From a virus (lineage: Duplodnaviria; Caudoviricetes), in IMG/VR virus record IMGVR_UViG_3300044971_001666, positions 1-63,879 of that record: a stretch of 63,879 bases of DNA; one strand, written 5' to 3'. The notes under the pieces are model-generated. The model did no database searches. It saw nothing but the letters and a program-made list of their open reading frames with translations, and was not told where the DNA came from. This document shows positions 24,901 to 63,797 of this stretch, piece after piece; within the stretch, counting starts at the first letter, position 1; each line of letters begins with the position of its first letter. The position numbers were made by a program, and so were the translations under genes.

Positions 24901-27900
24901 TTGGAAACAAAAAATAGGAAACGAATTTACAGAAGTAGCAAAATCAGTACAAGATAATGCACAAGCAAAGTTTGACGAACAAAATAAAACCCAATTAGAA
25001 AATGGAATTAATAAAACGGAATCGAAGGAATCAAAGCCCATCACTATTCAGAGAGGAAAAGAGGCTGACAAAGAAGGAGCAAATGCAAATGCTCGTAATG
25101 AAGCAAAAAGAGAGGAAATTAAATCAGCCTTTAAAAAGCTAAGAGATGAAGGATTGCTTAAAACGGCAGATAAAACATTAATAGGTAAGGCTAAAAGAGT
25201 TTTAGGCATTAAATCTGCGCCTATGTCTGACGCTGAAATTGATGTTCAAATGGCATTGATAGACGCTATGGCTGATGTTTGGAAGAAAACAACTGGCAAG
25301 GATAACTTTTACGAAACATTTATTGCAGACGTTAAAAAAGGGAACTTAGCTGAACTGCAAAAAATTGGCGGTGTGTTATTTCAAGATACAGAAAACACAA
25401 AAAGACCAACAACAAGGGTTACGCTTGCTGTTTTTGACGCAACTCAATTTGAAAAAATGAAAGGGCAGCAAGTAGCACCACAAGCTATTTCTGATTTAGT
25501 AAAAGGTCGTGGAAAACAAATTGAGAAAGATATTATTAACATGGTTCTTGGATATGATAAATATAAAGGACAAAAACGTATTTCTTTTGACGAATTTAGA
25601 AGTGATGTAGAAACACAAATAATGAAGTTAGAAAAAATCCGCACAGATTCTTACGCTAATTATGGTTATGACAACTTGGGCGATAATGAAAACTACGGAG
25701 AAAGAGAAACTGTAATATTTAATTCGCCTATTGAACATGGAGAAAAAGGACATTTTAGCGGTGATTTTACAACGGAAGGGTTAGACAAAACAGAGTGGGA
25801 ATTAAAGCAAATCCCTAATACAGACAAGTGGGCTGCAATGGATAAAAATATGCCTTCTAACGTAACAGCAGATAACGTTGCAGAATATGTTGGAACAGCA
25901 GGAGAAAAAGCAGAGGTAGAAAAGTGGATTGCCGATAGAGATAAAGAAAGTATTGGAGGTCTTAATAAAGGACTATTTGGACATATTAGAAAATGGTTTA
26001 ATAAGAGTGATGGAATATTTCATATAGCCGAACTACAATCTGATTATTATCAGAAAAATAAAGCAAGTGATTTATTAAAACCCGAAGTAGGACAAGATGA
26101 AATTGATGCTTACATGAACAAAAACGTGTGGCAGCCAATGGATAGAGAAATTTCAAGAAAAATAAAAGAACAATTTGGAATTACTGTTAAGAAGTTTGAT
26201 GATAAGTTTATTGCCTACGATAAAGAAGGTAGACCATTAAGCGAAGTAGAATTAAAAGAAGAACCGTTAGTTGGACTAAATGTAGGCGACTTTGAAGAAA
26301 ATGCAGTTGTAGTTTATGCACTTAAAAGCCTATCAGAACGTAGGGTTAATGATGAAAAATTAGAAAATGGAACATATAAAGGTACTCTTAATACGTCAAA
26401 AGATGGCGGAAAAATTGATACTGTTATTTTAAATACTGAAAAAGAAGTAGAGGATTTCGCCAAAGCAAATGATGGAAGACTTAATGGCTCAGAAGATAGT
26501 TATAATGTTATAAGAGAAAACTACCACGAAGAAAGAAAAAAACTAAGACAAACCGAAGAACAAAAATTTATACAAAAGCGTCAAGCAGAGTTAGAAAAAA
26601 CAAAACCAACTAATATACAGCTTAAACAATTTGTAGCTTCACAGAAAGTACATGAATTGAGGTTGCTAAGAGAAGCAATTAAAATGGCAGCAGACGAAGG
26701 TGCTGAAACAGTAAGATTTCCTGACCAATATACACTTGCTGTTATTGAGGGATATACTGATGCAACAGGACAAGGTAACACGCCATACGAAGTAGTTAAT
26801 GGAGATTCTGATAGATTATATGAAGGCGACATGATTGATTATGGTGGAGAAAATATGACTGTTGTAGAACAAAACAGAGATACAATAACAGTTGTTCCAA
26901 GTGATGAAGTTTCAATTTACAATCTTTACGATTTAATTAATGACGAAACAGATGATAGAGTTAGAGAAATAGAATATGAAGCAAAACGTCATTTTGGGGA
27001 TATGGAAGCTATTACAAAAGAAGATGTAGAAAGCTATGAACCTGACGAATGGATGGGAGCAGAAGCAAAATCATTATTAGAGGAATATTTTGAGCAAAAT
27101 GAAGAAGAAGAAACTGTAAGTTGGAAAGAAATAAAAAATGGATTATACGATAGTATAAATTCAAATTATAGCGAAATGAGTGTTGATGATATTCTTGGTT
27201 GGAGTGGAACTGTATGGCAAGATGGTGATACTATTTATGCAATTGAGGGTAGAAACTATGAAACATTTAATCAGCCCGATGGGTACGAAGAATCTTCAAC
27301 AAAAGAAGATTACTACGATAATTTAAGTAGCGACCAAAAAACAGTAGTTGATAAATACGGAGAATTAGGCAAGCAATTTGAAAAAATGCGCCCCGATGCA
27401 AGACTTATTCAAGACGAAAATGGAATGGGATGGTACGAAACAACTATAACAGAAGAAGACAAGAATAACCCTATTGTAGCATTTCAAGAAGAAGGTGGAA
27501 AAGTAAAAGGTGCTATTGACTTTACTAATAATAACAAAGCTACACTATATGTTTTTGATGGAGCAGATATATCTACACTTGCACATGAAATGAGCGGACA
27601 TTTAGGGCGTAGAGTGTTAGAAAAATTAGCAGAAGCAAGCCCCGAATTTGCTAAAAAATACGAAGCAGTTAAAAAATGGGCAGGAGTAAAAGATGTTTGG
27701 ACTACAAAAGCAGAAGAAAAATTTGCAAGAGGATTTGAAAGATATTTAAGAGATGGCGTAGCCCCAACAAAAGCATTAAAAGAAGTTTTTAGTAAACTGA
27801 AAGAATGGCTTAGTGGTATTTATAAAATTATAAAGGGCAGTTCAATTGATGTAAAATTAACTAACGATGTAAGAAATGTATTTGATTCATTATTAGGCAA

Positions 27901-30900
27901 AGAACAAGTAGAACAAAAGCCTACAACAGCCGAAAAAGTAGCTAAAGCCGAAAAAAGCATTAACGACATTCGTAACAAACTAAAAGAAAAATTCAAAGTA
28001 AACTTACCCGAAGGAACACAAACCAAAGGATTTACAATGAACGAATTAATTGATGTAATAGCTGATACTGCAATACAAATAGCTAAAACAGGAATTGAAA
28101 TAAACGAAGCAATAAAACAAGCTATTCAATATTTAAAAGAAGAAGGCGATTTAGAAGACTTTGACGAAACCGAAATTTTTGATAAAGCCAAAGAAGCGGT
28201 AAGTACCACCGAAGCAGCAATAGTAAAAGACCCTATTTTAAAGCGTATAAACAAAGCATTTTTAAAGATAGGTACTGAAATACTTGACAATGCCGAAGCG
28301 TTAATGGCTAAAGCAGCAAGCATAGTTGGCGATGTAAGGAAAAACGTAACAGCAGGATTTGAAACAAGGGATGGCAAACCTATTGGCTTCACTTACGATA
28401 CAGACCAAGTAGCAAGAGAAAGGTTTGACTTCTCTAAATTAAAACAAATAGGCAAAGGAAGTGACAGAACTGTTTTTGATTTAGGTAATGGAAGAGTGCT
28501 TAAAGTTGCTCATACAGCAAGAGGATTAGAGCAAAATATTTACGAAGGAGATTACCTTTTAAAAGGGATTATTCCAGAAGTTTTTGAAAGAGGGCTTAAT
28601 TATGTTGTTGTAGAAAACACTCCAAGACTAAAAGCAGCCGACAAAGTAATTACTTACGACTACGAAACAGGCGAAGAAAATGGCACAACAACAGCAGGAG
28701 ATATGTTAAGGCAGCTAGGTCAGTTTAATCAGTCGCATTTTGAAAAGCATAATGATAACCTACTTAGAATACTTGGAAAGTTTGGATTTAGCGATATAAT
28801 GTCTTATGACGTTTTGTTTGGCGATTTTACTGCAATAAGAAATTGGGGGTATAAAGACGGAATGGCGGTGCATTTAGACGGAGGTACTTTTGGTGGCGTA
28901 AGAATGCTCACTAATCATAAAAATAAAGCACCTTTAAGCGACCCAGAATTTAGGGAGATTTACAATAAGAGTAAGCAGTTAAAAAAACAATTTGGAGATA
29001 CTGATAAAAACACTAGGTTCAATATTACAATGCCTAATGGTAGCCAAGTAACGGTTAAGCCATTTGAATCAAATAGCGAGGATAAAAACAACGCCCTTAT
29101 AAGAGAAAACAATATAGAAGGCAAGTTACTTAACAAGCAAGAATCGGAAAGTCTTCAAAAGGAAATTGAATCTAAATACCAAATAGAAGGTCAGCCTAAA
29201 TTTGGACAAGAAAATGAAGATATTAGAACAAATTTATTTAACTACGAAAATCCGATAGCAGAAAAAGATGTAAATGGAGTTAATTTAAGAATTGCAGAAG
29301 GATTAATAGAGGGAGAAAAATTTTCTGGCAATAGAAAAAAAACCTTTTTACTGTACGCAGATGGTAAAATAGTTGGTAAGTTTTATTCTGTTGAAGATGC
29401 TAAAAAAGTTGTAAAGTTTATTGAGCAAAATCTAATTAATCAAAAAACACTACTCCCACAAGGTCAACCCTTATTTCAATTAAACGACAAAGGAGAAATA
29501 CTTGGCTTTACTCATAACGGTAAAATATACTTAAACGGAGAAAAAATAACAGCTAATACCACAATGGAAGAGGCTGGACATATTTGGATTAATTGGGCTA
29601 AAGAAAACCGTTCAGACTTATACAAACAAGGCATTGAGAAGGTATTAGGAAGCAAATATTTAATCGAAGTAAACAATAACCCTAACTACCAAGCAGAAGC
29701 CCTTAAAGCAGGGGAAAAAGGCAGCGAAGCGTATAATGCTTATATGCAAGAAGAAGCATTAGCAAAAGCAATAGCTGATAATGGTGCTAAGTTTATTACA
29801 GAAACAAGAAAAGCTAATTTCAGAGAGTGGGTAACTGCAATGTGGAAAGAAGTTGTAAAAGCCTTCGGAATACAGAACTTATCACCTAATCAAGTTAAAA
29901 AACTAACTTTAGAGCAATTTGCTAAAATGGCTGCTGCCGATGTGTTCAAGAAAGAATCGGTTATGACTGATAAGGAGAAAGCAACTGCTAAAGTAGAAAT
30001 ATTAGACGCTGACCAAAAAATGTTAGTTGACGATATTACCATTGCTGAAAATGACGAAGAAACTATACAAGGCGTAAAAGGCTTTATAGATTCTATGAAT
30101 AGAGCAAAAGGGCTTACTCAAGAAGAGAAAGACGCAATGAATGAGCGTTTGGGTAGGAACTATGAAGTATTATCAAATGAAAAACTTGAACTAATTGGTA
30201 AAACTATTATTGAAGAATTAGGTGGACTAGACAAGGCATTATTAGAAGCGCAAAACGCTAAATCTGATTTATTGCCTTACATGAAAACCTTTATTCTAGG
30301 TCAAGCAATACTTGAGAATAAGAAATTAGAACAAAACGCTGCAACCCAAGAAGCCAAAAATAAATATGCCGACATTCAAATAGATTTGTTTGATAAACTA
30401 GACAACCTTTCAAGGGATTTTGGTAGAGCAATTCAATACTTAAATAAACTTTACAGCAAAAGCGCATTAGCGGTAACTAGAAAAGCTAAAAAGATTTTAG
30501 CTGATAGAAATGGTGCGAACCAAATTGAAGCCGAACAAGCAGCCGATAAAATAGAAGCAGCAATATTTGAAGATGATAATACAGATTCAGCAAACGAAGC
30601 CTTACAAGACCTTTTAAATAACGAAAAGGAAAAAGTAAAAGAGTTAGAAGCTGCTTACGAAAAACTTAAAAAACAAATTGCTAATCCAACCGAACCAAGA
30701 CCTAATAATCCTAAAAGAGATTTAGGCTCAAGTAAGGATAAAAAAGCAACTATAAAAAGACTTAAAGAAACCAAGTACAATGCGAATAGACAAAACATAA
30801 TTCCTATTGCACCTCCTAAACTAATGGAAGATTTAAATGATTTGACATTAGAATACATGGAAGAAGGATTTTATGATTTTGAGGACATTCAGAAAAAACT

Positions 30901-33900
30901 TAAAAAAGATTTAGGTGGATTACACTCTGATTATTACGCAGAAGCATACGAACAATCGAAAGAAAAAGCAGTAAGTAAAGGAGTAAAAGAAAGCGAATTT
31001 ACACCAACCGAGCAAGTAAATACTATTTTAGATAAGCAACGTGAAACAAGTGATGCTGCTAAACTAGCGAAAGCAAGCGAGAGGTTAGCGAAAGCACAAA
31101 TTGAAAAGGTAAAACAAGCACTATCAACAGATGCTAATAAAAAATCGTTCAAGGAAAGACTTAAAAACCTAATACCTAAATCGGGAAACATTTGGCTTAA
31201 ATATCAAGAAAGCAATGTAAATTCATTGGTAGCTAAACTAAATGCAACTGCAAGTAAAAATGAATCTCCTTTATTGGCTGAATTTTCAAAATTGGTTACT
31301 CAAAATATAAACGAGAAACTAAATGAGTTAATGCCTAAAGGAAACAATGTAAGCCAAGAAAAAAATAAATCGTTAGAACTTGCTGACATTATTAAGAACG
31401 AAGAAAAGTTTGCAGAAATTTACGAAAAGGCACTTACTAAAATTAAGGAACAAAATAAAGATAACCCAAAAGCAATTTCTTTATTAGAAAACCTTTTAGA
31501 ACAAAACGACTTAGGAAAACCATTTAGCAAAAAAGCTATCTCAAATGCTATTGAACAAAAAATAAAACAAACCAAACAAAGCATTGACGATGTAATTATC
31601 GAAGGAGAAGAAAGTATATTAGCATTTAAACAAAAGATTGTAGATAGTATTTTAAAAGATGCCGAACTAGACACAGAAGTAGAAGCGGAAATTAAAGATA
31701 GGATTGAGTTTGAAGTTGATAATTTGTTCAACACACAAGCAAAAAATCACTACAAAACCACAGCGCAAAGAATTGTTAATGATGCTAAGTCAATGGCAGA
31801 TTTACCTACTACTAAAAAAGAAGCAAAGGTAATAAGCCAATTAATTAGTAAAGTAGCTTCAATGGCAAAGGATACCATGATAAACAAAAAACAAGTGGTT
31901 GGTAAAACACCACTTGAATTAATGGAATTTGCTTTAAAAAATGCTGAAATAGGTAGAAAAATATTTACAGAAGCACAAAAAGAAGTTCAAGACATTATAA
32001 AGAATGACGAAAACTTAACAGCCCAAGAAAAAGCTGATTTAAAACAGTTTTTAGAAAATTATCAAAAGTCAATATTTGATGCGCTTCTTACCAATAAAAA
32101 TAAGGACTTAATAATAAAAGAAGCCCTAGTAAAATTAGGTTACGCAACACAAGATAGTAAAGGAAATATAGTAGCTGATTTAGGGAAAATTGCATTAAGC
32201 AAAAACACTCCTAAAGAAGCAATTGAAAAAGTTAAAGAAGCGATAAGTAATGAGTTAGGTTTAGACCCTAGCGAAATTGACGACTTACTAGCTGCTTTAG
32301 AAACAAGATTTAATGAACTTATTCAAGCTAAAAAAGAAGCTAAAATAAACGCTGTTGTAAAAGCAAACGATAGATACAAAGCAGCTACACAATTTTCAAA
32401 CAAAGCTAGGAAAGATAAAATACGTTCACTAATTGAACTTTACAATGCGGGTGGTTTAACAAACGATAAGATTTTAGAAAAAATGGCTCGTGATTTAGGT
32501 ATTATAGCCTTTACGGATAACGACCAAAAGATTATTGAAGACTTGTTACAGCGTATTGATAATGCGGGTTTAGGTTTTGTTAGTGCGGGTTTAGAAGAAG
32601 AACTACAAGCATACTTTGAACATATAGGCGGTACTTTTGCCATGAAAGAAATGTTTGAGCGTTGGAGAGCAAGATTACTTTCGGGCTTTATTACAACGGG
32701 CAAAAACTTAACAGGCTTCTTTGATACGGGCTTTATGATTGGACACCAATTAATAGATTCCAATATGAACATGGGTTTGTTGAAAGGTAATGTTGACTTA
32801 AATATTTTAAAAGTAATTAGACAAGCCAATAGAATTGGAGGAACACTAGCCTTAGAAAGTTTAGTAAATGGAAGTGTTGATAACGGAAGTGCTTTTGCCG
32901 AACAAACTGGTCAAAAAGAAGGAACACCAAGCGTAAGGTTTTTAGAATTTCAAAAATATCACAACTATTGGACACCTGATTTACCCGTAACCGTAAAAGG
33001 CGTAACATTTAACTTAAACCCAATAAACGCCTTAAAGAAAAACGAAAAATACGTTCAAAGGGTTTTAGGTGCAACTGATAGTGTAAACCATACTATTTTG
33101 CAAGAAATGAAATCATACACTTTTATAAAAAGAGTGGTAATGAGAGGTAGCCCCGAAATGAGTGCGAAAGAGGCTGCGAAAGTGGCTTATGAAATTATGT
33201 ATTACTTAGACATTACAGAAGCAACAATAGCTGCATCTGAAATGTATAAAGAACAAGGTTTAGACATAGATAAAAACAAAAGAGCTTTTAATAAACTGGT
33301 TTACAAACTAGCACAAGACCATACTTTATTTAGGGCTTTAAGAAAAGCGACTGATGAATTTAAAAAATCAAACATTGAATATACTTCAAAAAGCGGGAAA
33401 CTAAAATTAAACAGAAGAATAAATGAGATTGCTCAACAAACAAGAGCAGACGATGTTATAAAAGCTGCTACTGAATTTGCTTCGAGATATACTTATAAAC
33501 AATCTGATATGGGTGTGTTTCCTTTAGTAGCCAACTTAATTAAATATGTAAAAGACGTATTTCCATTAATGGCAGCAAGGATTAGAAAGAATGCAAAAGG
33601 CACAGCGTATTCAAAACAAGCTAATAAAATAGCAAATGGTATTGAAATAAGTGGAGAACTATTATTTACAAGTACAATGCCTTTTATAAATGGTGTGGCG
33701 AATATTCTTGAAAAAGGATTAGAGTTTAACCCTATTTACGGTGGAATAAAATCAGCAACTTACTTAGGACTAGCTTTAAATGCTAATAACAAAAAAGATA
33801 CAACAAAAGCAAGAGAACTTTCAGCAAAAAGCGGTGAAGTTATTTACAGAGTAGCGGTTGGAATGTTATTAATGGCACTTTTACAATCACTAGCAGACGA

Positions 33901-35086
33901 TGACGAAGCAGACGATGAAAAAGCAATTTACGGACAAGGAGATAAGAACTTTAATAGAAACAAAGTTATAGAAACTGTTCGCCCTCAAAATACCATAAGA
34001 ATAGGTGGGCGTGATATTTCATTCGATTTCTTTGGAACACTAGCAACTGAAATAAAAATACAGTCAATTGCAATGGACTTAAAAAGATACGCTGATAAAG
34101 AAATTACTAATACTCAATATATGGGTATGGTTTATAATCAAATTATAAGTTCATCATTCACAAAAGGACTTTCGGATATTGCAACCGCAGCTTCAAGTAC
34201 AGCCCAAACAGGTAAATTAGCTACTTATTTTGAGAAAAAAACAGCCGAGCTATCTACTAGAGTAGTTTTACCATTTACAAGTTTTGCTAGACAAGCGGGG
34301 CAAGTAGCAGAACCCGAAGCTAAAAAAGCAATTGGTTTAAAAGAAAATATAATTAAACAAGCGGGCGTTGGTGGTTGGCTGTTAAACAGACCGAACCTAG
34401 ATTATAGAGGAAGAACTTACGATACGGGCGAACTTTATACAAGTAGTGCTAGTGGCGCAATGAATTTATTTGGAAGTAGAGTAAATAAAGACCCTATTGA
34501 TATTTGGGTTTTAAAAGCTGCAAACAATAATTTAGGAGTTAGCGACATCAAAAAAGATAGTGATAAATTTTATTTAGTTGACAATCCCGATGGAACTTCT
34601 CGCCCAATGACTGACGAAGAAACTTATGATGTTTCAGCAGAAGCAGCTAGAATATTTAATGGTTTATTGGTTGACTACTATAATAAAGAAAAGAACAATC
34701 CTATTACTAAAACAAGTCAAGAGCAAGTTGCGAAAGATTTAAGCGAAAGACATAACGAAGCTAAAAAAGCATCGTTTAGAAAATTATTTAAAGGCAGTAA
34801 AAACGAGGACAAATATTTAGAAGATAAATTTGATTGGCTTAAAAAAGACGAAGGCAAAGAAACTGAAATCAAAAGAGCAGCCGATGATATTGCTAATAAA
34901 GTTAGTGAAGAAACAAAAGCATTGCGTGATAGATTACCTAAAGACAAATACGACAAACAAATATTTTTAGCTAAAATGCTTCGCTCAATAGTAAACAAAA
35001 CTACCACCTTAAAACAATGGAAAGAAGCGGGCATTATTGAAAGCGTAGAGAAAGAAGGACAAGAGATATTGAAATTGTCAAAATAA
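21914..35086 (+). CDS. giant polyvalent virion (ejection) protein, 4390 aa
   Basis: Gly/Ala membrane-like segments, HEMSGH zincin-like motif, ELQSD motif, kinase-like segment, long coiled coils. Confidence 0.8.
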   Translation: MPVEKDYIGGLHGYLKENFGDDFKLTTEQFKSKLSTDSAYANQLHGYLKENFGEGFKLDIADFQNKVGYIDPSKKKQNSSPNFATTLQEAITPLPSGVQKPLESSSPLASNLKSVATEKPIDAKTALLQKANQEQNLSNPLEGTTQTDVFIEENRKPTVLNMAKSINNKSQERVKVLTERVGLLKGIKDFEAQIPKIQESAQQLSDIVKDPTQPITSRQAAQEQLKLYQDQFDQFENAVNNYKGLIDKEKSIITDIHKDEDLRQKGLERDYNSITAFVDAIKSSTIKVGAGGAGMFNTLGLSGDPEDTNSENNEQVQNEVRNNVQTIKKFGESLVTQETPKNFEKIFEGDFSTKKLKYILAQGIGQTIPTVAAGFLGGAGGATIAGAGLGFIESKDMFKAAGLNEKQSDWAAFGLAIPLGALDEYGISDIITKPIGKLILKETTEDVIKTLAKKELTNEAIFETVKKTLGEKIKEYSIDVAKAGWKEPLTEMEQALLSEGAKQATEEITGKDSNANQTLSEYFKQTALKIAEEGVYGLAGGVGLSAVTSAIQNRTTPSAYQRAMELKNPELLQDFTEQLDSEVQSGRLTTEQAQIALENVKKIQELDGKIPNTIKDIDKRSMAASLVGVKDELKLEIEGKDETLVQPLKDEIKNIDQTLLDIAQNKPIEEIENGLNEQETSMSEIPTNQEQKIETPQETKTTTTPSSDNSSEVAALGSVEVPKTLSQLKISDEITQTLENKLKGLESERTNKLIENKGKGKFDDRLKDEIEEVKRNIYKRENELASRRNSDLESKIKDGSLLKLISENKITAEDARGLIIESGMEIPSEIQSIVDKNKQDKKENKQSIIERDTDFLGNEKEAYMVNNDKANGIRTQEDIDYYKANVKRAIESGKYEKSVKEGRMTANDARIIVESYGLKVPKTLETLLKTEQTNEPTPIEATIPTSNKGTQTAEPTKQDGEAKVESKPIALPKENDVVTLEVPNRLPIKMAFKDGVWKQKIGNEFTEVAKSVQDNAQAKFDEQNKTQLENGINKTESKESKPITIQRGKEADKEGANANARNEAKREEIKSAFKKLRDEGLLKTADKTLIGKAKRVLGIKSAPMSDAEIDVQMALIDAMADVWKKTTGKDNFYETFIADVKKGNLAELQKIGGVLFQDTENTKRPTTRVTLAVFDATQFEKMKGQQVAPQAISDLVKGRGKQIEKDIINMVLGYDKYKGQKRISFDEFRSDVETQIMKLEKIRTDSYANYGYDNLGDNENYGERETVIFNSPIEHGEKGHFSGDFTTEGLDKTEWELKQIPNTDKWAAMDKNMPSNVTADNVAEYVGTAGEKAEVEKWIADRDKESIGGLNKGLFGHIRKWFNKSDGIFHIAELQSDYYQKNKASDLLKPEVGQDEIDAYMNKNVWQPMDREISRKIKEQFGITVKKFDDKFIAYDKEGRPLSEVELKEEPLVGLNVGDFEENAVVVYALKSLSERRVNDEKLENGTYKGTLNTSKDGGKIDTVILNTEKEVEDFAKANDGRLNGSEDSYNVIRENYHEERKKLRQTEEQKFIQKRQAELEKTKPTNIQLKQFVASQKVHELRLLREAIKMAADEGAETVRFPDQYTLAVIEGYTDATGQGNTPYEVVNGDSDRLYEGDMIDYGGENMTVVEQNRDTITVVPSDEVSIYNLYDLINDETDDRVREIEYEAKRHFGDMEAITKEDVESYEPDEWMGAEAKSLLEEYFEQNEEEETVSWKEIKNGLYDSINSNYSEMSVDDILGWSGTVWQDGDTIYAIEGRNYETFNQPDGYEESSTKEDYYDNLSSDQKTVVDKYGELGKQFEKMRPDARLIQDENGMGWYETTITEEDKNNPIVAFQEEGGKVKGAIDFTNNNKATLYVFDGADISTLAHEMSGHLGRRVLEKLAEASPEFAKKYEAVKKWAGVKDVWTTKAEEKFARGFERYLRDGVAPTKALKEVFSKLKEWLSGIYKIIKGSSIDVKLTNDVRNVFDSLLGKEQVEQKPTTAEKVAKAEKSINDIRNKLKEKFKVNLPEGTQTKGFTMNELIDVIADTAIQIAKTGIEINEAIKQAIQYLKEEGDLEDFDETEIFDKAKEAVSTTEAAIVKDPILKRINKAFLKIGTEILDNAEALMAKAASIVGDVRKNVTAGFETRDGKPIGFTYDTDQVARERFDFSKLKQIGKGSDRTVFDLGNGRVLKVAHTARGLEQNIYEGDYLLKGIIPEVFERGLNYVVVENTPRLKAADKVITYDYETGEENGTTTAGDMLRQLGQFNQSHFEKHNDNLLRILGKFGFSDIMSYDVLFGDFTAIRNWGYKDGMAVHLDGGTFGGVRMLTNHKNKAPLSDPEFREIYNKSKQLKKQFGDTDKNTRFNITMPNGSQVTVKPFESNSEDKNNALIRENNIEGKLLNKQESESLQKEIESKYQIEGQPKFGQENEDIRTNLFNYENPIAEKDVNGVNLRIAEGLIEGEKFSGNRKKTFLLYADGKIVGKFYSVEDAKKVVKFIEQNLINQKTLLPQGQPLFQLNDKGEILGFTHNGKIYLNGEKITANTTMEEAGHIWINWAKENRSDLYKQGIEKVLGSKYLIEVNNNPNYQAEALKAGEKGSEAYNAYMQEEALAKAIADNGAKFITETRKANFREWVTAMWKEVVKAFGIQNLSPNQVKKLTLEQFAKMAAADVFKKESVMTDKEKATAKVEILDADQKMLVDDITIAENDEETIQGVKGFIDSMNRAKGLTQEEKDAMNERLGRNYEVLSNEKLELIGKTIIEELGGLDKALLEAQNAKSDLLPYMKTFILGQAILENKKLEQNAATQEAKNKYADIQIDLFDKLDNLSRDFGRAIQYLNKLYSKSALAVTRKAKKILADRNGANQIEAEQAADKIEAAIFEDDNTDSANEALQDLLNNEKEKVKELEAAYEKLKKQIANPTEPRPNNPKRDLGSSKDKKATIKRLKETKYNANRQNIIPIAPPKLMEDLNDLTLEYMEEGFYDFEDIQKKLKKDLGGLHSDYYAEAYEQSKEKAVSKGVKESEFTPTEQVNTILDKQRETSDAAKLAKASERLAKAQIEKVKQALSTDANKKSFKERLKNLIPKSGNIWLKYQESNVNSLVAKLNATASKNESPLLAEFSKLVTQNINEKLNELMPKGNNVSQEKNKSLELADIIKNEEKFAEIYEKALTKIKEQNKDNPKAISLLENLLEQNDLGKPFSKKAISNAIEQKIKQTKQSIDDVIIEGEESILAFKQKIVDSILKDAELDTEVEAEIKDRIEFEVDNLFNTQAKNHYKTTAQRIVNDAKSMADLPTTKKEAKVISQLISKVASMAKDTMINKKQVVGKTPLELMEFALKNAEIGRKIFTEAQKEVQDIIKNDENLTAQEKADLKQFLENYQKSIFDALLTNKNKDLIIKEALVKLGYATQDSKGNIVADLGKIALSKNTPKEAIEKVKEAISNELGLDPSEIDDLLAALETRFNELIQAKKEAKINAVVKANDRYKAATQFSNKARKDKIRSLIELYNAGGLTNDKILEKMARDLGIIAFTDNDQKIIEDLLQRIDNAGLGFVSAGLEEELQAYFEHIGGTFAMKEMFERWRARLLSGFITTGKNLTGFFDTGFMIGHQLIDSNMNMGLLKGNVDLNILKVIRQANRIGGTLALESLVNGSVDNGSAFAEQTGQKEGTPSVRFLEFQKYHNYWTPDLPVTVKGVTFNLNPINALKKNEKYVQRVLGATDSVNHTILQEMKSYTFIKRVVMRGSPEMSAKEAAKVAYEIMYYLDITEATIAASEMYKEQGLDIDKNKRAFNKLVYKLAQDHTLFRALRKATDEFKKSNIEYTSKSGKLKLNRRINEIAQQTRADDVIKAATEFASRYTYKQSDMGVFPLVANLIKYVKDVFPLMAARIRKNAKGTAYSKQANKIANGIEISGELLFTSTMPFINGVANILEKGLEFNPIYGGIKSATYLGLALNANNKKDTTKARELSAKSGEVIYRVAVGMLLMALLQSLADDDEADDEKAIYGQGDKNFNRNKVIETVRPQNTIRIGGRDISFDFFGTLATEIKIQSIAMDLKRYADKEITNTQYMGMVYNQIISSSFTKGLSDIATAASSTAQTGKLATYFEKKTAELSTRVVLPFTSFARQAGQVAEPEAKKAIGLKENIIKQAGVGGWLLNRPNLDYRGRTYDTGELYTSSASGAMNLFGSRVNKDPIDIWVLKAANNNLGVSDIKKDSDKFYLVDNPDGTSRPMTDEETYDVSAEAARIFNGLLVDYYNKEKNNPITKTSQEQVAKDLSERHNEAKKASFRKLFKGSKNEDKYLEDKFDWLKKDEGKETEIKRAADDIANKVSEETKALRDRLPKDKYDKQIFLAKMLRSIVNKTTTLKQWKEAGIIESVEKEGQEILKLSK

Positions 35087-36735: not shown

Positions 36736-37239
36736 ATGTCGAAATTATTCGTAAAACCACAACGACCTAAAAGAAAAAAGAAGCTAAACATAATCTTCAA
36801 TCTATTCTCGTTTTGCCCTTTAGAAGATGCAGATTACAATTGTTTTATTTCGTTCAGATATTACCAAAGAAAAAATGAAGAGTTTTTTGCTTGGGGATAC
36901 ACAATAAAATCAAAGAATGAAATTATTAAACAAGATAGAAGCCAAGTACACTATCACGAAGGAATTAGTGAGTTTTCGCTTACATATACAGCAATTAGTA
37001 GAATATTTGATTATTTTATTTCAAACGATTTAGTAGAAGCGAAAATTAATTTATTCTCCGAAAGCCCATTAGTGTTTGACCAAATGGCGGGGAATGTAAA
37101 GATAAACCCAAAAGCCTATTGCGCTGACTTAGCTTGGGAGATACAAGATAAAATGGTAGAGTTTTACAATTTAAGGCTAAACTTTATAACAAGAACATCA
37201 AATATTGACAATTATAACTATATTCACGAATTAGTTTAA
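36736..37239 (+). CDS. RNase H-fold protein, apparently catalytically degenerate
   Basis: AWGYTI, LTYTAI, INLFSESPLVFDQMAG.VKI, FITRTSN follow RNase HI spacing, but acidic catalytic residues are altered. Confidence 0.6.
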   Translation: MSKLFVKPQRPKRKKKLNIIFNLFSFCPLEDADYNCFISFRYYQRKNEEFFAWGYTIKSKNEIIKQDRSQVHYHEGISEFSLTYTAISRIFDYFISNDLVEAKINLFSESPLVFDQMAGNVKINPKAYCADLAWEIQDKMVEFYNLRLNFITRTSNIDNYNYIHELV

Positions 37240-38069: not shown

Positions 38070-38753
38070 TCATGCTTTTATGTGTTGGTAAATAGTTTTA
38101 AGCGTATAATTAATGCTGTTTTCATTCAGCTTCACCTTAATATCTTTTGCAGCCATTCCATTTTTAGCATAGGCTTTGATTAGTTCTACTCCGATTGGTG
38201 AAGTAGGTTTGTAGGTACGGTTTTTTGCAACTAGAGCCATTTGTTTTTTAGCATACTCTTTATCTTGCATAAGAGGACTACCTAGAGAAGTAATTGTATT
38301 CCCTTTTTTGGTAACGTAAACCTTATCTTTTTTAAGTCTATTTTTTATAGAGTTCAATCCATTAACGGTTCTTTCGGAAATCATTTCACGCTCCCTTTGT
38401 GCCATAGCTGCAAATAAATTTATTGTAAAGCCATCACATTCAGGCATATCCGAACATATAAACTTAACCTTACTTTCCATGAGTGAACTAATAAAGTAAA
38501 CATTTCTCGAAAGTCTATCCAGTTTAGCCACAACTAAAGTAGCGTTATGTAGCTTACACATATTTATAGCTTCTAAAAGCATGGGTCTATTATTCTTTTT
38601 GCCCGATTCTATTTCGGTAAAAGACTTAATTACAATACCACTATCTGTTATCTGCTTCACAGCCTTTTCTTGCGCTTCTAAACCAAGTCCGCTTTGACCC
38701 TGTTCTTTAGTAGAAACTCTTTTATAAGCCACATATTTTTCATCGTTTTGCAT
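38070..38753 (-). CDS. small serine recombinase (resolvase/invertase family)
   Basis: YVAYKRVST.EQ..SGLGLEAQ, ESGK..NRP, LVVAKLDRLSR, ERE.ISERT. Confidence 0.93.
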   Translation of the reverse strand: MQNDEKYVAYKRVSTKEQGQSGLGLEAQEKAVKQITDSGIVIKSFTEIESGKKNNRPMLLEAINMCKLHNATLVVAKLDRLSRNVYFISSLMESKVKFICSDMPECDGFTINLFAAMAQREREMISERTVNGLNSIKNRLKKDKVYVTKKGNTITSLGSPLMQDKEYAKKQMALVAKNRTYKPTSPIGVELIKAYAKNGMAAKDIKVKLNENSINYTLKTIYQHIKA

Positions 38754-40536: not shown

Positions 40537-40677
40537 ATGATTAAGGAAAAAGACATAGTAATAAGAGTAGAACCCGAATTTAAAAAGACGCTGCAACAAA
40601 AGGCTAAATTACTAGGTCTTAGTTTATCTTCTTTCGTTAGGTCTGTTTTAGTAAAGGAATTGAAAAACAATAAATAA
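40537..40677 (+). CDS. ribbon-helix-helix DNA-binding protein (not in ORF track)
   Basis: manual translation MIKEKDIVIRVEPEFKKTLQQKAKLLGLSLSSFVRSVLVKELKNNK. Confidence 0.8.
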   Translation: MIKEKDIVIRVEPEFKKTLQQKAKLLGLSLSSFVRSVLVKELKNNK

Positions 40678-40708
40678 AATGAAAAATAAATTGTCAAAGC
40701 GAAACGAG

Positions 40709-40739
40709 AAGCCCGCCTTTTGCTTATGTGCTGTTATAT
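40709..40739. repeat. half attC-like site (one arm plus core)
   Basis: AAGCCCGCCTTTTGCTTATGTGCT-GTTATAT resembles the right arm of 41655..41787; no partner arm upstream. Confidence 0.65.
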
Positions 40740-40808
40740 GAAGTGCCGACTTATTTACGATAAAGCCCAATTGGAACACTAAACAGAAAAACAAAAAGAA
40801 AAAAAGCG

Positions 40809-41072
40809 ATGGGAAATTTAAAACAAAAATTAAGTAAATACCAAAATCCAACTTTGATAAACGGGACTATTTATTACAATGTTCCTGAAAATGTATTGGA
40901 TAATTTAGAAAACGACAAGTGGGAACACTTTACGGATAAAAAATACCCTGAAAATGATTGTGATATTGTTGTTTTTAGCAACAAGAAACACAAATATTAC
41001 ATTGAACATACGGATAGTGAATTTTGGGAAAGATGTATTAATAGAAACTATATAAAATGGATGAAATTATGA
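40809..41072 (+). CDS. hypothetical cassette protein
   Basis: ORF starting right after the inner inverted repeat. Confidence 0.65.
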   Translation: MGNLKQKLSKYQNPTLINGTIYYNVPENVLDNLENDKWEHFTDKKYPENDCDIVVFSNKKHKYYIEHTDSEFWERCINRNYIKWMKL

Positions 41073-41323
41073 AACAACAAACAGCAGTAGAATGGTTAGT
41101 AGAACAACTAACTCCTTCAATATCGTTACAACAAAAACATATTGATGAATTAAAAGAGAAAGCTAAAGAAATGGAGAAAGGTCAAATAGTTGATGCAGGG
41201 GTTTTTACATTTCAACTAACTGATAAAACGCCTTACGGAATGGAATATCTAAGCAAACTTGATAATGCAATTTCAAATGCGGTGTATTATTATGATGAAA
41301 CTTATAACAAACAAAATAAATAA
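41069..41323 (+). CDS. hypothetical cassette protein (QTAVEWL-type small phage protein)
   Basis: MKQQTAVEWL...AKEMEK.QI...YYDETY. Confidence 0.7.
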   Translation: MKQQTAVEWLVEQLTPSISLQQKHIDELKEKAKEMEKGQIVDAGVFTFQLTDKTPYGMEYLSKLDNAISNAVYYYDETYNKQNK

Positions 41324-41324
41324 A

Positions 41325-41582
41325 ATGGAAACAAGTAAAGAATTAAAAACACCTACACAACACATGATGATATGGGTGTTGCAAAACTTTGAAAAAGAGT
41401 TGGAAAACGATATTGATAAAGACAAGTCGCTTGATGAAATATTTGATGAAACACTAACTTTTGAGCAACGAAAAATGAAAGAGTTTTTTGTAGCAGGAAT
41501 ATTTAAAGGTAAACAGAATATAGATTTTGACTTAGATGAAGAATTTAAAAAGTTTTACTCAAAATTATTCCCCGAAGAATAA
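41325..41582 (+). CDS. hypothetical cassette protein
   Basis: METSKELK start just after previous stop. Confidence 0.6.
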   Translation: METSKELKTPTQHMMIWVLQNFEKELENDIDKDKSLDEIFDETLTFEQRKMKEFFVAGIFKGKQNIDFDLDEEFKKFYSKLFPEE

Positions 41583-41654
41583 AAGTGCGGTGGCTTTTTT
41601 CTTTTTGTTTTTCCTTCACGGAACTTCAATTGGAAACGGTAAGCAAGGCATTTC

Positions 41655-41787
41655 ATATAACGTTTTGCAGCTACCAGAAGGGCGGGATTTTAACAACAAA
41701 ATAAATTTAAAAAGATGAATTATAATTTAACCACAAATGCTTCTAACGAAGCCGAAAGCCCCGCCTTTTTGGTAGGTGCTGTTAGCA
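41655..41787. repeat. attC-like site
   Basis: ATATAAC-gtttt-GCAGCTACCAGAAGGGCGGG...CCCGCCTTTTTGGTAGGTGC-t-GTTAGCA. Confidence 0.8.
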
Positions 41788-42644
41788 GTAGTGCCTTTCT
41801 CGAATTAAAATAAAACTTCTGGGCGGAGTTATAAAACCCAATAAAAACAAAATGAATAATTTAAAAAATGAACCAATGGTGAAGCATAGTAACCAAGTTC
41901 ACACAACAACAGATTACTTTCTATTTAACCCAATAGAAGGTAACAGAAACAAAAACTTGTTACACATTAACAGATTAAAAAAATCAATGGCAGAAAACTA
42001 TTTATTTACGGTTATTATCGTAAATGAAAAGCATGAAATTATTGATGGGCAACACAGGTTTGATGTAATTCAAGATTTAAAACTACCGTTGAATTATATT
42101 ATTTGTAAAGGTTATGGATTAAACGAAGTTCACATTTTAAACCAAAACTCTAAAACATGGAACGCTGATGACTATTTAACTGGATATTGCCAGTTAGGTT
42201 ATGAGCATTACATTGAGTATGCAAAGTTTAAATCTAAATTTGGATTTGGGCATAATGAATGTATGCTATTGCTTGGCGGGTCTGATACGGGACATTCAAT
42301 AAAAGAGTTCTATTGTGGTGAATTTAAGATAAAGGATTACAATAAAGCACTTGAAAAAGCCACAAAAATAACAATGATAGGAAAGTATTATGATGGCTAT
42401 AAAAAATCTTCTTTTGTTAGAACTATCGCTCAAATTTTAGATAAGCCTGTTTTTGATTTTACTCAATTTATGCAGAAATTAAGAATACAGCCAACGGCAT
42501 TGCAGGACTGTTCAAATAACGAACAATACAAGCTATTGATTGAGGAAATTTACAATTACAGAACAAGAGAAAAGGTTAATCTTAGATACTAGTTTAATTG
42601 CGGGGTGTCAGTCGGCTTGCGGGTCGGCTGGCATTACTGCTAAC
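41781..42644 (+). mobile_element. gene cassette A2 (ParB-like gene)
   Basis: ends GTTAGCAGTAGTGCC (41781-95) and GGCATTACTGCTAAC (42630-44), 14/15 inverted match. Confidence 0.8.
41852..42592 (+). CDS. ParB/Srx-like N-terminal domain protein
   Basis: GNR...INRLKKSM...IIVNE...IIDGQHR. Confidence 0.8.
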   Translation: MNNLKNEPMVKHSNQVHTTTDYFLFNPIEGNRNKNLLHINRLKKSMAENYLFTVIIVNEKHEIIDGQHRFDVIQDLKLPLNYIICKGYGLNEVHILNQNSKTWNADDYLTGYCQLGYEHYIEYAKFKSKFGFGHNECMLLLGGSDTGHSIKEFYCGEFKIKDYNKALEKATKITMIGKYYDGYKKSSFVRTIAQILDKPVFDFTQFMQKLRIQPTALQDCSNNEQYKLLIEEIYNYRTREKVNLRY

Positions 42645-42711
42645 GGGTCGCAGATACACGCTGTGAGCGTTGGATTGAGGGAGGGAAAATAGCGTGTATG
42701 TGCTGTTATAC
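42638..42711. repeat. attC-like site
   Basis: TGCTAAC-gggtc-GCAGATACACGCT...AGCGTGTATGTGC-t-GTTATAC. Confidence 0.8.
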
Positions 42712-43040
42712 GCTGCCTTTATTACTAATTTAATTTAAAAACAAAAATATGAACGCAAAAGAAAAAGCAAAAGAGTTAATCGAAAAATATCAAAAAATTG
42801 ATATTGAAATAGGTGGTCAATATGATGGCTACCTTACAATGAAAATACACGATGCCAAACAATGTGCTTTGATAGCAGTTGAAGAAATACTAAATGCAAG
42901 ACCATTAGACCCTAATTATGTAGATTGGGATGATTGTGGGGCAGCACACCAATATTGGTATGAAGCACAAAAAGAGGAAGCACTTGAATTTTGGAATAAT
43001 GTCAAATCGGAGTTGCAGTCTTTGTAAGGTTGCGTATAAC
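42705..43040 (+). mobile_element. gene cassette A3
   Basis: ends GTTATACGCTGCCTT (42705-19) and AAGGTTGCGTATAAC (43026-40), 13/15 inverted match. Confidence 0.8.
42749..43027 (+). CDS. hypothetical cassette protein
   Basis: stop codon overlaps cassette end; paralog at 37236..37436. Confidence 0.75.
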   Translation: MNAKEKAKELIEKYQKIDIEIGGQYDGYLTMKIHDAKQCALIAVEEILNARPLDPNYVDWDDCGAAHQYWYEAQKEEALEFWNNVKSELQSL

Positions 43041-43059
43041 TACTGTATAACTGCAACAA
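43037..43059 (-). other. candidate attI-like terminal site of array 1
   Basis: - strand reads TTGTT-GCAGTTATACAGTA-GTTA; same layout as 62021..62043. Confidence 0.5.
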
Positions 43060-43074
43060 AAAGGATAAATAAAT

Positions 43075-44000: not shown

Positions 44001-44324
44001 ATGGAAGTAAAGTGGACAGAAAGATACTCATTTGACGATTATCCTGACGAGCGAAATAGATGGGCTAGAGTAGGGTATGCGGGATTATTTAATAAGGATG
44101 GTACTCCTAAATTTGATAAAAAATTAGATACTTGGAAATATTTTGAAATAGCATGGATTAGCCAAGTAAGTTTTATTCATTCAGAAACTAAGCAAATGAC
44201 TAAAACTTATGTAGTTTCGTACAGATTTCCTAATTACGGTAAACTAAGTTTTAGCGACATAGATGATGCTAAAAAAGAAGTTGAGAACCAATTGAAGATA
44301 TTTTTAGAAATAATGAATAAATGA
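44001..44324 (+). CDS. hypothetical protein
   Basis: ORF in operon. Confidence 0.65.
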   Translation: MEVKWTERYSFDDYPDERNRWARVGYAGLFNKDGTPKFDKKLDTWKYFEIAWISQVSFIHSETKQMTKTYVVSYRFPNYGKLSFSDIDDAKKEVENQLKIFLEIMNK

Positions 44325-44989
44325 TAAAAGTCAAGCCTAAAAAACCAAAAGCACCAAACCAAAACCCCGATTGCAAAAAATGTGGTAAGCCATTTAAGCG
44401 ATATAAAACAACTAAATCAATTTGTGATGAATGTATTTTTAAAGCAATTGATTACGGTAAAGAAAACCCTCAAAAAGTTTCACAAACCGCAATTAAACAA
44501 GCTAAGAGTGCATTTAAAAAAGAAGTTATTAGAGATACAGCATGGTATTTAAAAAAACTACAAGACGAGGTAAATTTAATTGCAAGGCTAATTGATAAAG
44601 ATTGCGTATGTATTAGTAGTTTGCGCCCAATGGCATCAGAAGAAATTCATGGAGGACATCGTTGGAATACAGCCGATTATAAAGCAATAAGGTTTAATTT
44701 ATTTAATATCCACTCACAATCATTGTCGGACAACCACTTTAAAAGTGGAAATGCTGACGGATACGTTAAAGGATTGAATATAATGTACGGAAAAGAATAC
44801 GCTGACATGGTTCAAGACTTACCAAATCAATACAATGAAATTAAACACATGAGAACTGACTTAGAGCAGTTTTATAGAGCAGCGCAAGGGGTAACTAAGT
44901 TTTTAAAACTAGAAAATAAAACCTATACACCAAGTGAACGAATTGAGTTGAGAGGGAAGCTAAATAAAATGATAGGAATTTTTGACTAA
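44321..44989 (+). CDS. NinG/Rap-like recombination endonuclease
   Basis: CKKC..C zinc motif; LQ..VN..ARLID...CISS...GGH...IRFNLFNIHSQ...N...SGN. Confidence 0.85.
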   Translation: MIKVKPKKPKAPNQNPDCKKCGKPFKRYKTTKSICDECIFKAIDYGKENPQKVSQTAIKQAKSAFKKEVIRDTAWYLKKLQDEVNLIARLIDKDCVCISSLRPMASEEIHGGHRWNTADYKAIRFNLFNIHSQSLSDNHFKSGNADGYVKGLNIMYGKEYADMVQDLPNQYNEIKHMRTDLEQFYRAAQGVTKFLKLENKTYTPSERIELRGKLNKMIGIFD

Positions 44990-58501: not shown

Positions 58502-59170
58502 TTATATTGCTTCGCTAATTAGTTTTTCTTTTACCTCTACTGTTAAACTGTATTTCTTTTCAATGTCGGTAATCTTATTACCTTCTCTTAGCCATTTTAA
58601 GGCAGCAGCATATTCGGGTGTATTTGCATTTAAAGATGGTTTTTGTTTAGGTGCTGCGGGTGGTGGTGTTTTTGGTGGTGGTGGAGTAGGTGGTACTTCT
58701 TCCTTTTTTCTATCAGGGTTATCAATATCATCTTCATCAGTAGCAATGTGAAAATATTTAAGTAAGAAATATCTTTCCCCATAAGTCAGTGCGCTGCCAA
58801 CTCCTTTATCGAAATCGTTCATCCCGTTAGCACCAAAAAGGTTTTCGTCTTTTTCGCCCGTTTCAGAATCTACCCAAGTAAATTTCATCATTACTTTTGA
58901 AAGTATTTCAATTTTAGGCTTACCGTTCCATTCTTTTGTTTCTTGGTTTTGAAATAACGAAACTTTGTAATCGGTTTTTTGGTTTTCTATGGAAATAATT
59001 TCTTGCTTTAAGAGTAGCCCTAAATCATTCATCAAAGGCTTAATTTCTCCTAAAACTTTGTCGCCCGTTACATACTTGTAACCCATAGCTGTCTTGTCTT
59101 TACCTAATCCATTTATTTTCTTTTGAATAGTAAGTAATTTTTGGTAAATATTTAGTTTTTGTTCGCTCAT
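58502..59170 (-). CDS. ERF-family single-strand annealing protein
   Basis: NIYQKL..IQ...YKY...DKGVGSALTYGERY.L...F.I.T.DD.D. Confidence 0.85.
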   Translation of the reverse strand: MSEQKLNIYQKLLTIQKKINGLGKDKTAMGYKYVTGDKVLGEIKPLMNDLGLLLKQEIISIENQKTDYKVSLFQNQETKEWNGKPKIEILSKVMMKFTWVDSETGEKDENLFGANGMNDFDKGVGSALTYGERYFLLKYFHIATDEDDIDNPDRKKEEVPPTPPPPKTPPPAAPKQKPSLNANTPEYAAALKWLREGNKITDIEKKYSLTVEVKEKLISEAI

Positions 59171-61163: not shown

Positions 61164-61562
61164 TTATTGTTCGTTTAAAAGTTCGGGATTTTCGTAAATA
61201 TTACCAACAACAATACAACTATCTGTAAGGTAGCTGTCAAATGGAATGATTTTATTATGTGATTTTATTTCAGCATGAAAAGCAGCGTGAATTTCATCTC
61301 CATAATCATTGCAATTTTTGTTGATATAATATACTTTGCAAGTTAGTCTTTCTCCAACCTTCATAATATCGCCATCATAAATAGGATTTCCTTTTCTATC
61401 TGACACGCCAGTAAATTGCATTAATTCAAAATGCTCAATATTTTTTGGCTCGTTTAAATTGTCTTCGTAATCTATTTCTTCGGTATCTAGCAATAACATA
61501 GTAACTTTTACCATTTGTTTGTACTGCTTATCCCACGCTCTAAATTTTGGTATGTTTTTCAT
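61164..61562 (-). CDS. YopX family protein
   Basis: KFRAWD...LMQFTG..D.KG.PIYDGDI...VVGNIYENPELL. Confidence 0.92.
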   Translation of the reverse strand: MKNIPKFRAWDKQYKQMVKVTMLLLDTEEIDYEDNLNEPKNIEHFELMQFTGVSDRKGNPIYDGDIMKVGERLTCKVYYINKNCNDYGDEIHAAFHAEIKSHNKIIPFDSYLTDSCIVVGNIYENPELLNEQ

Positions 61563-62020: not shown

Positions 62021-62043
62021 TTGTTTCGCCAATCTACGAGTTA
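62021..62043 (+). other. candidate attI-like terminal site of array 2
   Basis: TTGTT-TCGCCAATCTACGA-GTTA. Confidence 0.5.
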
Positions 62044-63276: not shown

Positions 63277-63360
63277 AAGGCATTGGCAAAAGCGGCTGAC
63301 AAGTTCCTGCATAAATCAAGCGGTTTCCAAGCCGCCTTCGCCAATGCCCAACCGTTAGCG
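63270..63360. repeat. attC-like site
   Basis: AAGTAAC-aa-GGCATTGGCAAAAGCGGCT...AGCCGCCTTCGCCAATGCC-caacc-GTTAGCG. Confidence 0.85.
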
Positions 63361-63797
63361 GTCATTCTAAACCGACACCCGATACAATCCTTTTTCATTG
63401 GGTTTTAAATCTACATTAAAGATAAATGACGACTTCCCAGTTTTTAATAAATCGAAAGTATCATCAAAGAAATTCATTAAATCCTTTGACGAAAAACGCA
63501 ATGTATGTGGGTCTTTTCGTTTTAAAATAAACGCATCATCTTCATCATCTTTTAAGACATAAGCCGTTTTTGCTTTTTGATTAAATCCAAACATTAAACC
63601 ATCATTATCATCAACATTTAAAGCCTTTGCGACAATATCGCTAACAATAAACCGACCGTTTTTTAACTCCAGTTTTATTACTGGTTTTTTAAATGTTCTC
63701 AATTGTGAATGAGAACTTCGCTTTACAAATACTATTTCTTCCATTTTTTGATATATTTTTATATTAATTTATGAGATAAAAAGAACGAACCGCTAAC
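63354..63797 (-). mobile_element. gene cassette B2
   Basis: ends GTTAGCGGT (63354-62) and ACCGCTAAC (63789-97), perfect inverted match. Confidence 0.8.
63367..63744 (-). CDS. hypothetical cassette protein
   Basis: 125 aa ORF whose stop overlaps the cassette end. Confidence 0.75.
   Translation of the reverse strand: MEEIVFVKRSSHSQLRTFKKPVIKLELKNGRFIVSDIVAKALNVDDNDGLMFGFNQKAKTAYVLKDDEDDAFILKRKDPHTLRFSSKDLMNFFDDTFDLLKTGKSSFIFNVDLKPNEKGLYRVSV

Follow-up and report, generated by a model that had tools for sequence, protein, structure and literature searches.

The DNA considered here is a 63,879-nt IMG/VR virus record (IMGVR_UViG_3300044971_001666, CheckV completeness 54%), which was analysed over its whole length and is referred to below as the window. 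Its subject is an array of gene-bearing segments separated by hairpins on the + strand (array 1), which, with a second array at the end of the window (array 2), probably belongs to a phage-borne integron-like gene-cassette system. Array 1 comprises three segments (E1–E3) and two junction hairpins (J1 and J2). E1 (40733-41661) begins with GTTATATGAAGTGCC and ends with GGCATTTCATATAAC, complementary at 14 of 15 positions with a G.T pair at position 11, and encloses three small open reading frames (ORFs; 40809-41072, 41057-41323 and 41325-41582) of no known family. Beyond these 15 nt the inverted repeat continues, with imperfections, to about 80 nt (40733-40817 / 41580-41661) and has a 19-nt perfect core. 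J1 (41662-41780) is a 119-nt hairpin composed of a GTTTT spacer, a 20-bp imperfect stem, a loop of about 70 nt and a T spacer, and an ATG at 41715 starts a 32-codon ORF that crosses its right arm into E2. E2 (41781-42644, ends GTTAGCAGTAGTGCC / GGCATTACTGCTAAC, 14/15 complementary) carries a 246-aa ParB-like (DGQHR) gene (41852-42592; PHROG ParB-like, 1.2e-29). J2 (42645-42704) is a 60-nt hairpin with a GGGTC spacer, a 13-bp stem, a 28-nt loop and a T spacer; both stems contain a G.G mismatch at pair 4. E3 (42705-43040, ends GTTATACGCTGCCTT / AAGGTTGCGTATAAC, 13/15 complementary) carries a 92-aa gene (42749-43027, phrog_21441). Both junctions read TAAC-N5-stem...stem-T-GTTA, and every segment runs from GTTA plus 11 nt to the complement followed by TAAC, so that the preliminary description of this DNA, which had reported three units with their own inverted ends (14/15, 14/15 and 13/15) separated by imperfect hairpins of the form AAC-N5-stem...stem-N1-GTT, was accurate on both counts.

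At the 5' edge of array 1 lies half a hairpin on the + strand (40705-40732), consisting of a J right arm (b') only, with 74% identity over 43 nt to the J1 right arm and the E2 start; a search of the whole window allowing up to 3 mismatches found no partner arm. A 46-aa ribbon-helix-helix (RHH) gene (40537-40677, RHH/NikA-like Pfam match) lies before this half hairpin. The 3' flank on the same strand (43041-43074, TACTGTATAACTGC...), where relatives have extra units, resembles weakly the attI-like sequence TAYTATATGTA described below (7/11 by eye) and is followed by a 76-aa ORF that is not a recombinase.

The regularity of this arrangement was evaluated against chance. The sequence GTGCTGTTA was found in exactly three copies in the window, all at the left junctions of array 1 units. 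Under strict criteria, the five array 1 elements formed a head-to-tail alternating chain of five, with the longest strict chain in 100 shuffles being one (97 shuffles) or two (3 shuffles). Only the strict chains exceeded chance. Counts of single E-like elements (4 on the + strand, shuffle mean 2.4) and single J-like elements (11 on both strands, 20.7 in shuffles) did not, and neither did abutments at loose thresholds or loose structural scans; the motif TAACNNNNNGCAG was likewise not enriched at up to one mismatch (28 matches, 42.5 expected).

When IMG/VR was scanned for abutting E and J elements, long arrays were found in many phage contigs, and the strict set comprised 71 unique J sites lying between two E segments together with 105 unique E end pairs. 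The scanner missed arrays of Polaribacter phage P12002L that are plain by eye, and false negatives therefore exist. The G.T pair at E-end position 11, read on the coding strand, occurred in 97 of the 105 end pairs without being demanded by the scan, position 10 was often T.T or bulged, and all four Watson-Crick pair types were seen at the variable positions in a subset of 43 end pairs. Facing ends of adjacent units (a' of unit k-1 against a of unit k) paired at 5.6 of 11 variable positions over 71 junctions, compared with 5.9 for random re-pairing, and thus a unit's own ends pair with each other while those of neighbours do not, as had been noted earlier for the core of each junction. When 22 long-type J sites were aligned, pairing was seen in 89.6% of cells against 62.5% in shuffles (0/500), with 141 compensatory cells against 45 in shuffles and at most 51% pairing for slid partners, and TAAC and GTTA were invariant in all 22 sites. 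The 5/1 spacer was present in 35 of the 71 sites, the first base of J was G in 70 of 71, and stem pairs 4-5 were a hot-spot for mismatches. The J sites accordingly display the attC-type combination of an imperfect hairpin, AAC/GTT cores, an unpaired spacer and mismatched bases. The 15-nt right end of E2 occurred in 118 stretches across IMG/VR, and in the 40 of them examined the same E2 end pair enclosed ParB cargos of 863-899 nt as well as unrelated cargos of 95-311 nt.

The structure is also strand-specific. The non-Watson-Crick pairs of J stems comprised 136 G.T and 29 A.C, and at each of the three sites in the window the gene strand gave the more stable fold. For J1 the DNA folds were -22.0 kcal/mol on the + strand (z -2.95) against -16.3 on the - strand (z -0.95), and for a J of array 2 the gene strand reached -23.5 kcal/mol (z -4.38) compared with -20.4 for its complement. 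From the bias in both pairs and folds it follows that the coding strand is the folding strand. All 76 units had their genes on this strand, in sense orientation; some of these units are nested calls, which makes the 76-unit figures approximate.

Comparison of related contigs revealed what is exchanged. In a close relative (G001), J1-E2-J2-E3 was retained at 80-97% identity (E3 at 96%, J1 identical), the position of E1 upstream of J1 was taken by another E, of 163 nt, and two more units were found between the TAAC of E3 and the same TACTGTATAAC flank. In one of these two units the J loop encloses an N6 methyltransferase, and an 'empty' E hairpin comes next. J2 was also found in the arrays of loci L281 and L310-312, at 91% identity. 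A J+E186 unit occupied different array positions in two other phages (G007 and G012), and G007 had four more units than G012 between a common unit and the flank. E2 homology started at 41767-41780 and ended at 42644-42662 in locus L082 and at least 14 further loci. Among metagenome contigs, loose ends led into another J or other cargo right after 41661, 41784/41793 and 43040, and one contig connected 41655 to 43035, so that units 2 and 3 were exactly missing, although the short side of 22 nt makes it weak. The earlier suggestion that the cassettes are shuffleable, to be checked on related phage contigs, was therefore borne out, with units gained, lost, replaced and reordered exactly at the GTTA/TAAC cores. 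Six E clusters were each present in at least two contexts; there were no extra types in the 60 nt upstream of them and nine in the 60 nt downstream, and since the upstream J is constant and the downstream sequence variable, the mobile unit is J plus the downstream E, exchanged at TAAC|. This result did not support the crossover at G|TT on the + strand that had been proposed, the hairpin being inherited with the segment downstream of it. The exchange point TAAC| reads as G|TT on the complementary strand, and the + strand would thus correspond to the bottom strand of integrons.

The last 82 nt of E1 were found at 98.8% identity in locus L283, directly against an attI-like flank and a recombinase gene. 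Metagenome contigs connect 40816/7 to 41581/4 with unknown letters in between, and the outer shell of E1, of about 80 nt, seems to be reused around different cargo. In two metagenome runs (X4 and X5), E2 had little or no depth, with its flanks, E1 and E3 covered by identical contigs; this gap was not used as evidence because contigs cannot show absence.

A tyrosine recombinase (PF00589) was found in 3 of 22 array-bearing records, each time just downstream of the array and on the same strand. A reciprocal search with the 277-aa recombinase gave 34 loci, and J/E units were detected upstream by the scanner in 24 of the 30 loci having at least 300 nt upstream, and downstream in none of the 34; several of the other six showed TAAC plus flank by eye. 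The last TAAC stood 52 or 67 nt before the recombinase ATG in 17 loci, and the flank TAAC|TAYTATATGTA was conserved down to 57% recombinase protein identity. Recombinases identical at 100% were found in eight loci beside four different terminal units. The protein (277-289 aa) consists of PF00589 and a SAM_4 N-terminal domain, its best PDB matches being XerA/XerC-like archaeal enzymes (4a8e, 5hxy) and XerD (1a0p), and it did not reach the NCBIfam cut-offs of XerA, XerD or IntI (for IntI, TIGR02249 164.5 bits, cut-off 265; NF011946 86, cut-off 435). It aligned to residues 16-175 and 248-319 of VchIntIA with 29 residues in place of 72 (about 43 fewer), and therefore is without the IntI insertion. 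The enzyme is a simple Xer-type recombinase.

Four relatives, with 61-85% identity, were found on bacterial genome contigs, all of them contigs of metagenome-assembled genomes no longer than 12 kb, and among 401 sampled Bacteroidia genomes four had a match at E ≤ 1e-60. One of these four, G379, has its match (66% identity) on a 48.9-kb contig together with a J+E unit and a TACTATATGTA flank, and this contig may represent a prophage, a chromosome or phage contamination. The recombinase-bearing phages were considered as crAss-like relatives of the window, an idea that was rejected when the crAss muzzle protein was found in none of five recombinase-bearing records.

Other enzymes were considered for the arrays. 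A serine recombinase (227 aa, resolvase N-terminal domain, PHROG DNA invertase) is encoded at 38070-38753 on the - strand, 2 kb upstream of array 1. A switch of the Gin/Hin/Mpi type was rejected, as just one of the 22 array-bearing records contained the Resolvase domain and no segment was found in inverted copies, all 76 units being in sense orientation. HUH transposases were likewise rejected, with Y1_Tnp in 0 of 22 array-bearing records.

Taken together, arrays 1 and 2 are considered, with a probability of about 0.7, to be recombinase-less arrays of a phage-borne integron-like gene-cassette system. This reading draws on structure, covariation, strand bias, the unit-wise gain, loss and reordering, and the linkage of array, flank and recombinase in relatives, all of which were observed. 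In the proposed mechanism, an excised unit would be a circle that brings its two ends together on either side of J. Folding of the circle's coding strand would produce one long attC-like hairpin, with a 15-bp outer helix containing the G.T pair at position 11, an internal loop of the 5/1 kind and an inner helix interrupted by a purine-purine mismatch; the modelled circle junctions reached -32.9, -21.1 and -31.9 kcal/mol, compared with -22.0, -12.9 and -23.5 kcal/mol in the array. The Xer-like recombinase would then exchange one strand at TAA|C or TAAC|, with the flank site or with another J, and units would be inserted at TAAC|TAYTATATGTA, just upstream of the recombinase's own gene. The role of the recombinase as catalyst, a folded single strand as its substrate, the precise bond that is cleaved and servicing in trans are steps that we infer. 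As had been stated earlier, no tyrosine recombinase is encoded in the window: neither PF00589 nor a remnant was found in the 63.9-kb record at E ≤ 10, and hence any recombination here would need an enzyme in trans. For the same reason, the window arrays would either be frozen or depend on service in trans, from a co-infecting phage or from an element of the host.

Several points weigh against this reading. Most arrays are orphans without a recombinase, the enzyme being present in only one of five array-bearing records that are at least 90% complete, and neither it nor a remnant was found in the window or in the close relative G001. In locus L082, E2 is 98% identical over 866 nt but has a different J upstream, which implies that exchange occurs at the J|E border too, and such exchange is unexplained by a single crossover point. 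The circle intermediates and the activity of the recombinase are inferred. The coding-strand bias and the G.U-type pairs fit an RNA structure equally well, and part of the conservation of J is regulatory, including start codons and direct repeats in the loops. Additionally, the scanner itself favours paired ends, and many of the loci sample the same few phages repeatedly.

Among the alternatives, the one that survives best, although it is unlikely, regards the units as mobile regulatory cassettes of the promoter early stem-loop (PeSL) kind, with J as a promoter, translation-start and stem-loop module that moves by general or short-homology recombination and needs no site-specific enzyme. The window does encode an ERF annealing protein (58502-59170) and NinG (44321-44989), of the ERF and NinG/Rap types envisaged, and J supplies start codons, has a mean column identity of 59% over about 118 nt and is exchanged at the J|E border too; the rarity of the recombinase fits as well. 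Homologous exchange would nevertheless spread breakpoints through the conserved J, whereas those observed sit at the single-base TAAC| border, and it leaves without a role the covarying ends of each E with their fixed G.T pair. Nor does it account for arrays that end at a fixed spacing of 52 or 67 nt from a tyrosine recombinase across 57-100% identity. PeSL were reportedly described by Arbiol et al. in 2010 as mobile regulatory cassettes of T4-type phages, with exchange attributed to homologous recombination. The present units resemble them in that small accessory genes are flanked by conserved promoter/stem-loop modules and swapped in hyperplastic regions, and differ in that PeSL are not known to have a dedicated recombinase or gene-specific covarying ends.

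A device acting chiefly in RNA, in which J and the long-range a/a' helices control processing or translation of early transcripts and modular exchange is a by-product, is quite improbable. It would explain why all structure lies on the sense strand with the excess of G.U-compatible over A.C pairs given above (136 against 29), why one stem position has a conserved G.U (15/22) and why start codons lie in the J loop. However, no Rfam family was matched at gathering thresholds or at E ≤ 1, and the DNA breakpoints at TAAC|, the attI-like flank and the adjacent recombinase are left unexplained.

The classical explanation, a cluster of attC sites lacking integron integrases (CALIN) whose attC sites derive from bacterial integrons and are served by a host IntI with crossover at G|TT on the + strand, is very improbable. 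Qi et al. 2023 (PMC9892861) reported CALINs in virulent phages, as recombinase-less attC-like clusters in lytic phages that carry DNA methyltransferases, and in the consulted sections of that paper the sites are treated as ordinary attC and tested with IntI1, and no phage recombinase is reported. The TAAC/GTTA cores and the imperfect hairpin with asymmetric unpaired bases do resemble attC, and one member of the J family, P12002L_attC1, was called as attC by HattCI, though not by HattCI plus Infernal (same sections of PMC9892861). The primer sequence listed for this site (Table S3, PMC9892861), also found in NC_028924, was identified as a short J hairpin of the present family with the TCGTTTTAATG loop. 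According to those sections, however, it was the one of six sites that did not recombine with IntI1, no attI1 junction having been verified for it. Furthermore, the hairpin moves with the downstream rather than the upstream gene, genes lie on the folding strand in all 76 units and start inside the hairpin in 30 of them, and the linked recombinase is about 43 residues short at the VchIntIA insertion and below the IntI cut-offs. Single-strand 'peel and paste' transposition of the HUH (IS200/IS605) type, with insertion 3' of TAAC, has only a slight chance: insertion is always 3' of this tetranucleotide, and a sub-terminal hairpin lies 5 nt from the left end in a strand-specific structure, but Y1_Tnp was absent from the 22 records and from the 72 window ORFs, and the linked gene encodes a tyrosine recombinase and not a HUH enzyme.

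Measured against integrons, the phage-borne cassette system was found to be similar in architecture and different in its parts. As in IntI1/attI1/attC and in VchIntIA/VCR (PDB 2A3V), a simple tyrosine recombinase gene lies beside an insertion site at which a one-directional array ends, imperfect hairpins with ...AAC / GTT... cores delimit the units, the first bases of a unit can pair with the far arm of the site belonging to it, units are gained, lost and reordered one by one, and folding is strand-specific. Read on the minus strand, the order becomes recombinase, insertion site and [segment - hairpin]n, as in an integron. Unlike integron integrases, the phage recombinase has 277-289 aa with 29 residues where IntI has 72 and falls below the IntI cut-offs; the outer helix of the phage site spans 15 bp and has a fixed G.T, next to which a T.T or a bulge is common, and the spacers are 5/1; the genes lie on the folding strand with the hairpin upstream, often containing the start codon; and the carriers are phages. 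The signature of integrated integron cassettes that the preliminary description had recognised is consequently retained as to its integron-like architecture and not as a classical integron, the enzyme being Xer-like without the IntI insertion and the hairpin lying 5' of the gene. The J+E units depart from the definition of an integron cassette, which is a promoterless ORF followed by attC with G|TT downstream of the ORF. No IntI integrase was found in the record, and the linked recombinase of relatives is without the IntI-specific insertion. The attI-like order of array, insertion site and recombinase gene occurs in relatives and is absent from the window. With two complete J and a half site in array 1, two J in array 2 and no integrase in 63.9 kb, the window would qualify as a CALIN only if J is accepted as an attC-type site. 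The interpretation given in the preliminary description is thus partly supported: the system works like an integron without being a classical one, and the array is an orphan member of a non-IntI phage system.

Among Xer-dependent elements are the CTX phage, with its folded attP, integrative mobile elements exploiting Xer (IMEX) and pdif modules. The present system shares with them an Xer-type recombinase, and with CTX the use of a folded single strand; it differs in that its sites are by inspection not of the dif-like 11-6-11 form, its arrays are tandem and unit-based, and its enzyme is phage-encoded. A literature search found neither the unit structure nor the flank site nor the Xer-like enzyme described, and the consulted sections of Qi et al. 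2023 (PMC9892861) contain no mention of unit structure, own-end pairing, an attI-like flank or an Xer-like enzyme. The system is large, widespread in Bacteroidota-type phages and apparently undescribed. In P12002L (L276, NC_028924), two arrays on the minus strand (~29166-29260 and 36960-37070) end in the same flank of about 80 nt after the last TAAC, and the published attC2, which recombined with IntI1 according to those sections, is this flank read on the other strand.

The 'empty' hairpins of both kinds have the loop TCGTTTTAATG and were seen in G001 (L272:1471-1499), L281, L288, L310-312 and P12002L; an E-type example reads GTTATAGCA-TCGTTTTAATG-TGCTATAAC, and such a hairpin is often the last element before the attI-like flank. 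The loops of long-type J sites, for example in L124, L102 and L174, contain a sequence of about 19 nt (approximately TAGAA..AC.AA.GTT.AA) directly repeated two or three times, which may be a protein-binding or promoter element.

Cargo was surveyed among 133 sense ORFs of at least 45 aa lying in, or reading into, E segments, of which the 65 longest were scanned after removal of ParB duplicates and window ORFs already scanned. DNA methyltransferases accounted for 15 of the 65 (5 C5, 6 N6_N4, 1 MT-A70 and 3 Dam), followed by one TET-associated glycosyltransferase, one NUMOD3/endonuclease and four other matches, with 44 having no family; the annotated cargo is therefore mostly DNA methyltransferases. 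The ParB-like unit of the phage studied here is also present in contigs from phages of other types. In 30 of the 76 units the main ORF begins within the J loop and continues across the right arm and the GTTA end. J also serves expression, often supplying the start codon.

Array 2 (62040-63879, - strand) runs past the end of the window. Its order is AAC (63879-63877), J (63876-63798), E (63797-63354, with a 125-aa ORF), J (63353-63277) and E (63276-62040, with a C5 DNA methyltransferase at 62071-63198), followed by the flank TCGTAGATTGG, and its genes likewise lie on that strand. The record encodes ring and muzzle proteins of the crAss type, and the phage is therefore crAss-like, with a Bacteroidota bacterium as its probable host; the metagenome runs containing this stretch were mostly from lake water. 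Searches for relatives through the neighbouring DUF3127 gene returned distant ones alone (identity ≤41%), and a DNA search of GenBank phages gave only 140-nt ParB matches in Flavobacterium phages. Elsewhere in the record, a 1041-aa ORF (6784-9909, +) has LAGLIDADG_3 and Hom_end domains at residues 370-449 and may be a large phage protein with an intein or an inserted homing endonuclease. A single ORF of 4390 aa (21914-35086, +) had no Pfam match and, by position and size, may be the crAss-type virion RNA polymerase. Two YopX-family paralogues lie near opposite ends of the record (1205-1549, +, and 61164-61562, -).

Integrons are regarded as bacterial devices dependent on IntI and its special insertion. 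The arrays described here bring integron logic into lytic phages, with folded single-strand sites, capture beside a recombinase gene and stockpiling, using a simpler enzyme, another site geometry and a site fused to the start of the gene. Somewhat short of an even chance is given to the wider reading that Bacteroidota-type phages run their own integron analogue, in which a minimal Xer-like recombinase without the IntI insertion, held to be essential for recognising attC, would capture and reshuffle units through a coding-strand hairpin that is also the 5' end of the gene, orphan arrays such as the two of the window would be restocked in trans during co-infection, and an anti-restriction gene pool (DNA methyltransferases, a DNA glycosyltransferase and ParB-like nucleases) would be shared across unrelated lytic phages. 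For annotation, the 'CALINs' reported in marine phages may belong to this phage system and not to bacterial integrons. If the enzyme works as proposed, it would be a second, independent solution for structure-specific recombination, would explain the movement of accessory and anti-defence genes between unrelated phages, and would provide a compact recombinase/site pair for engineering.

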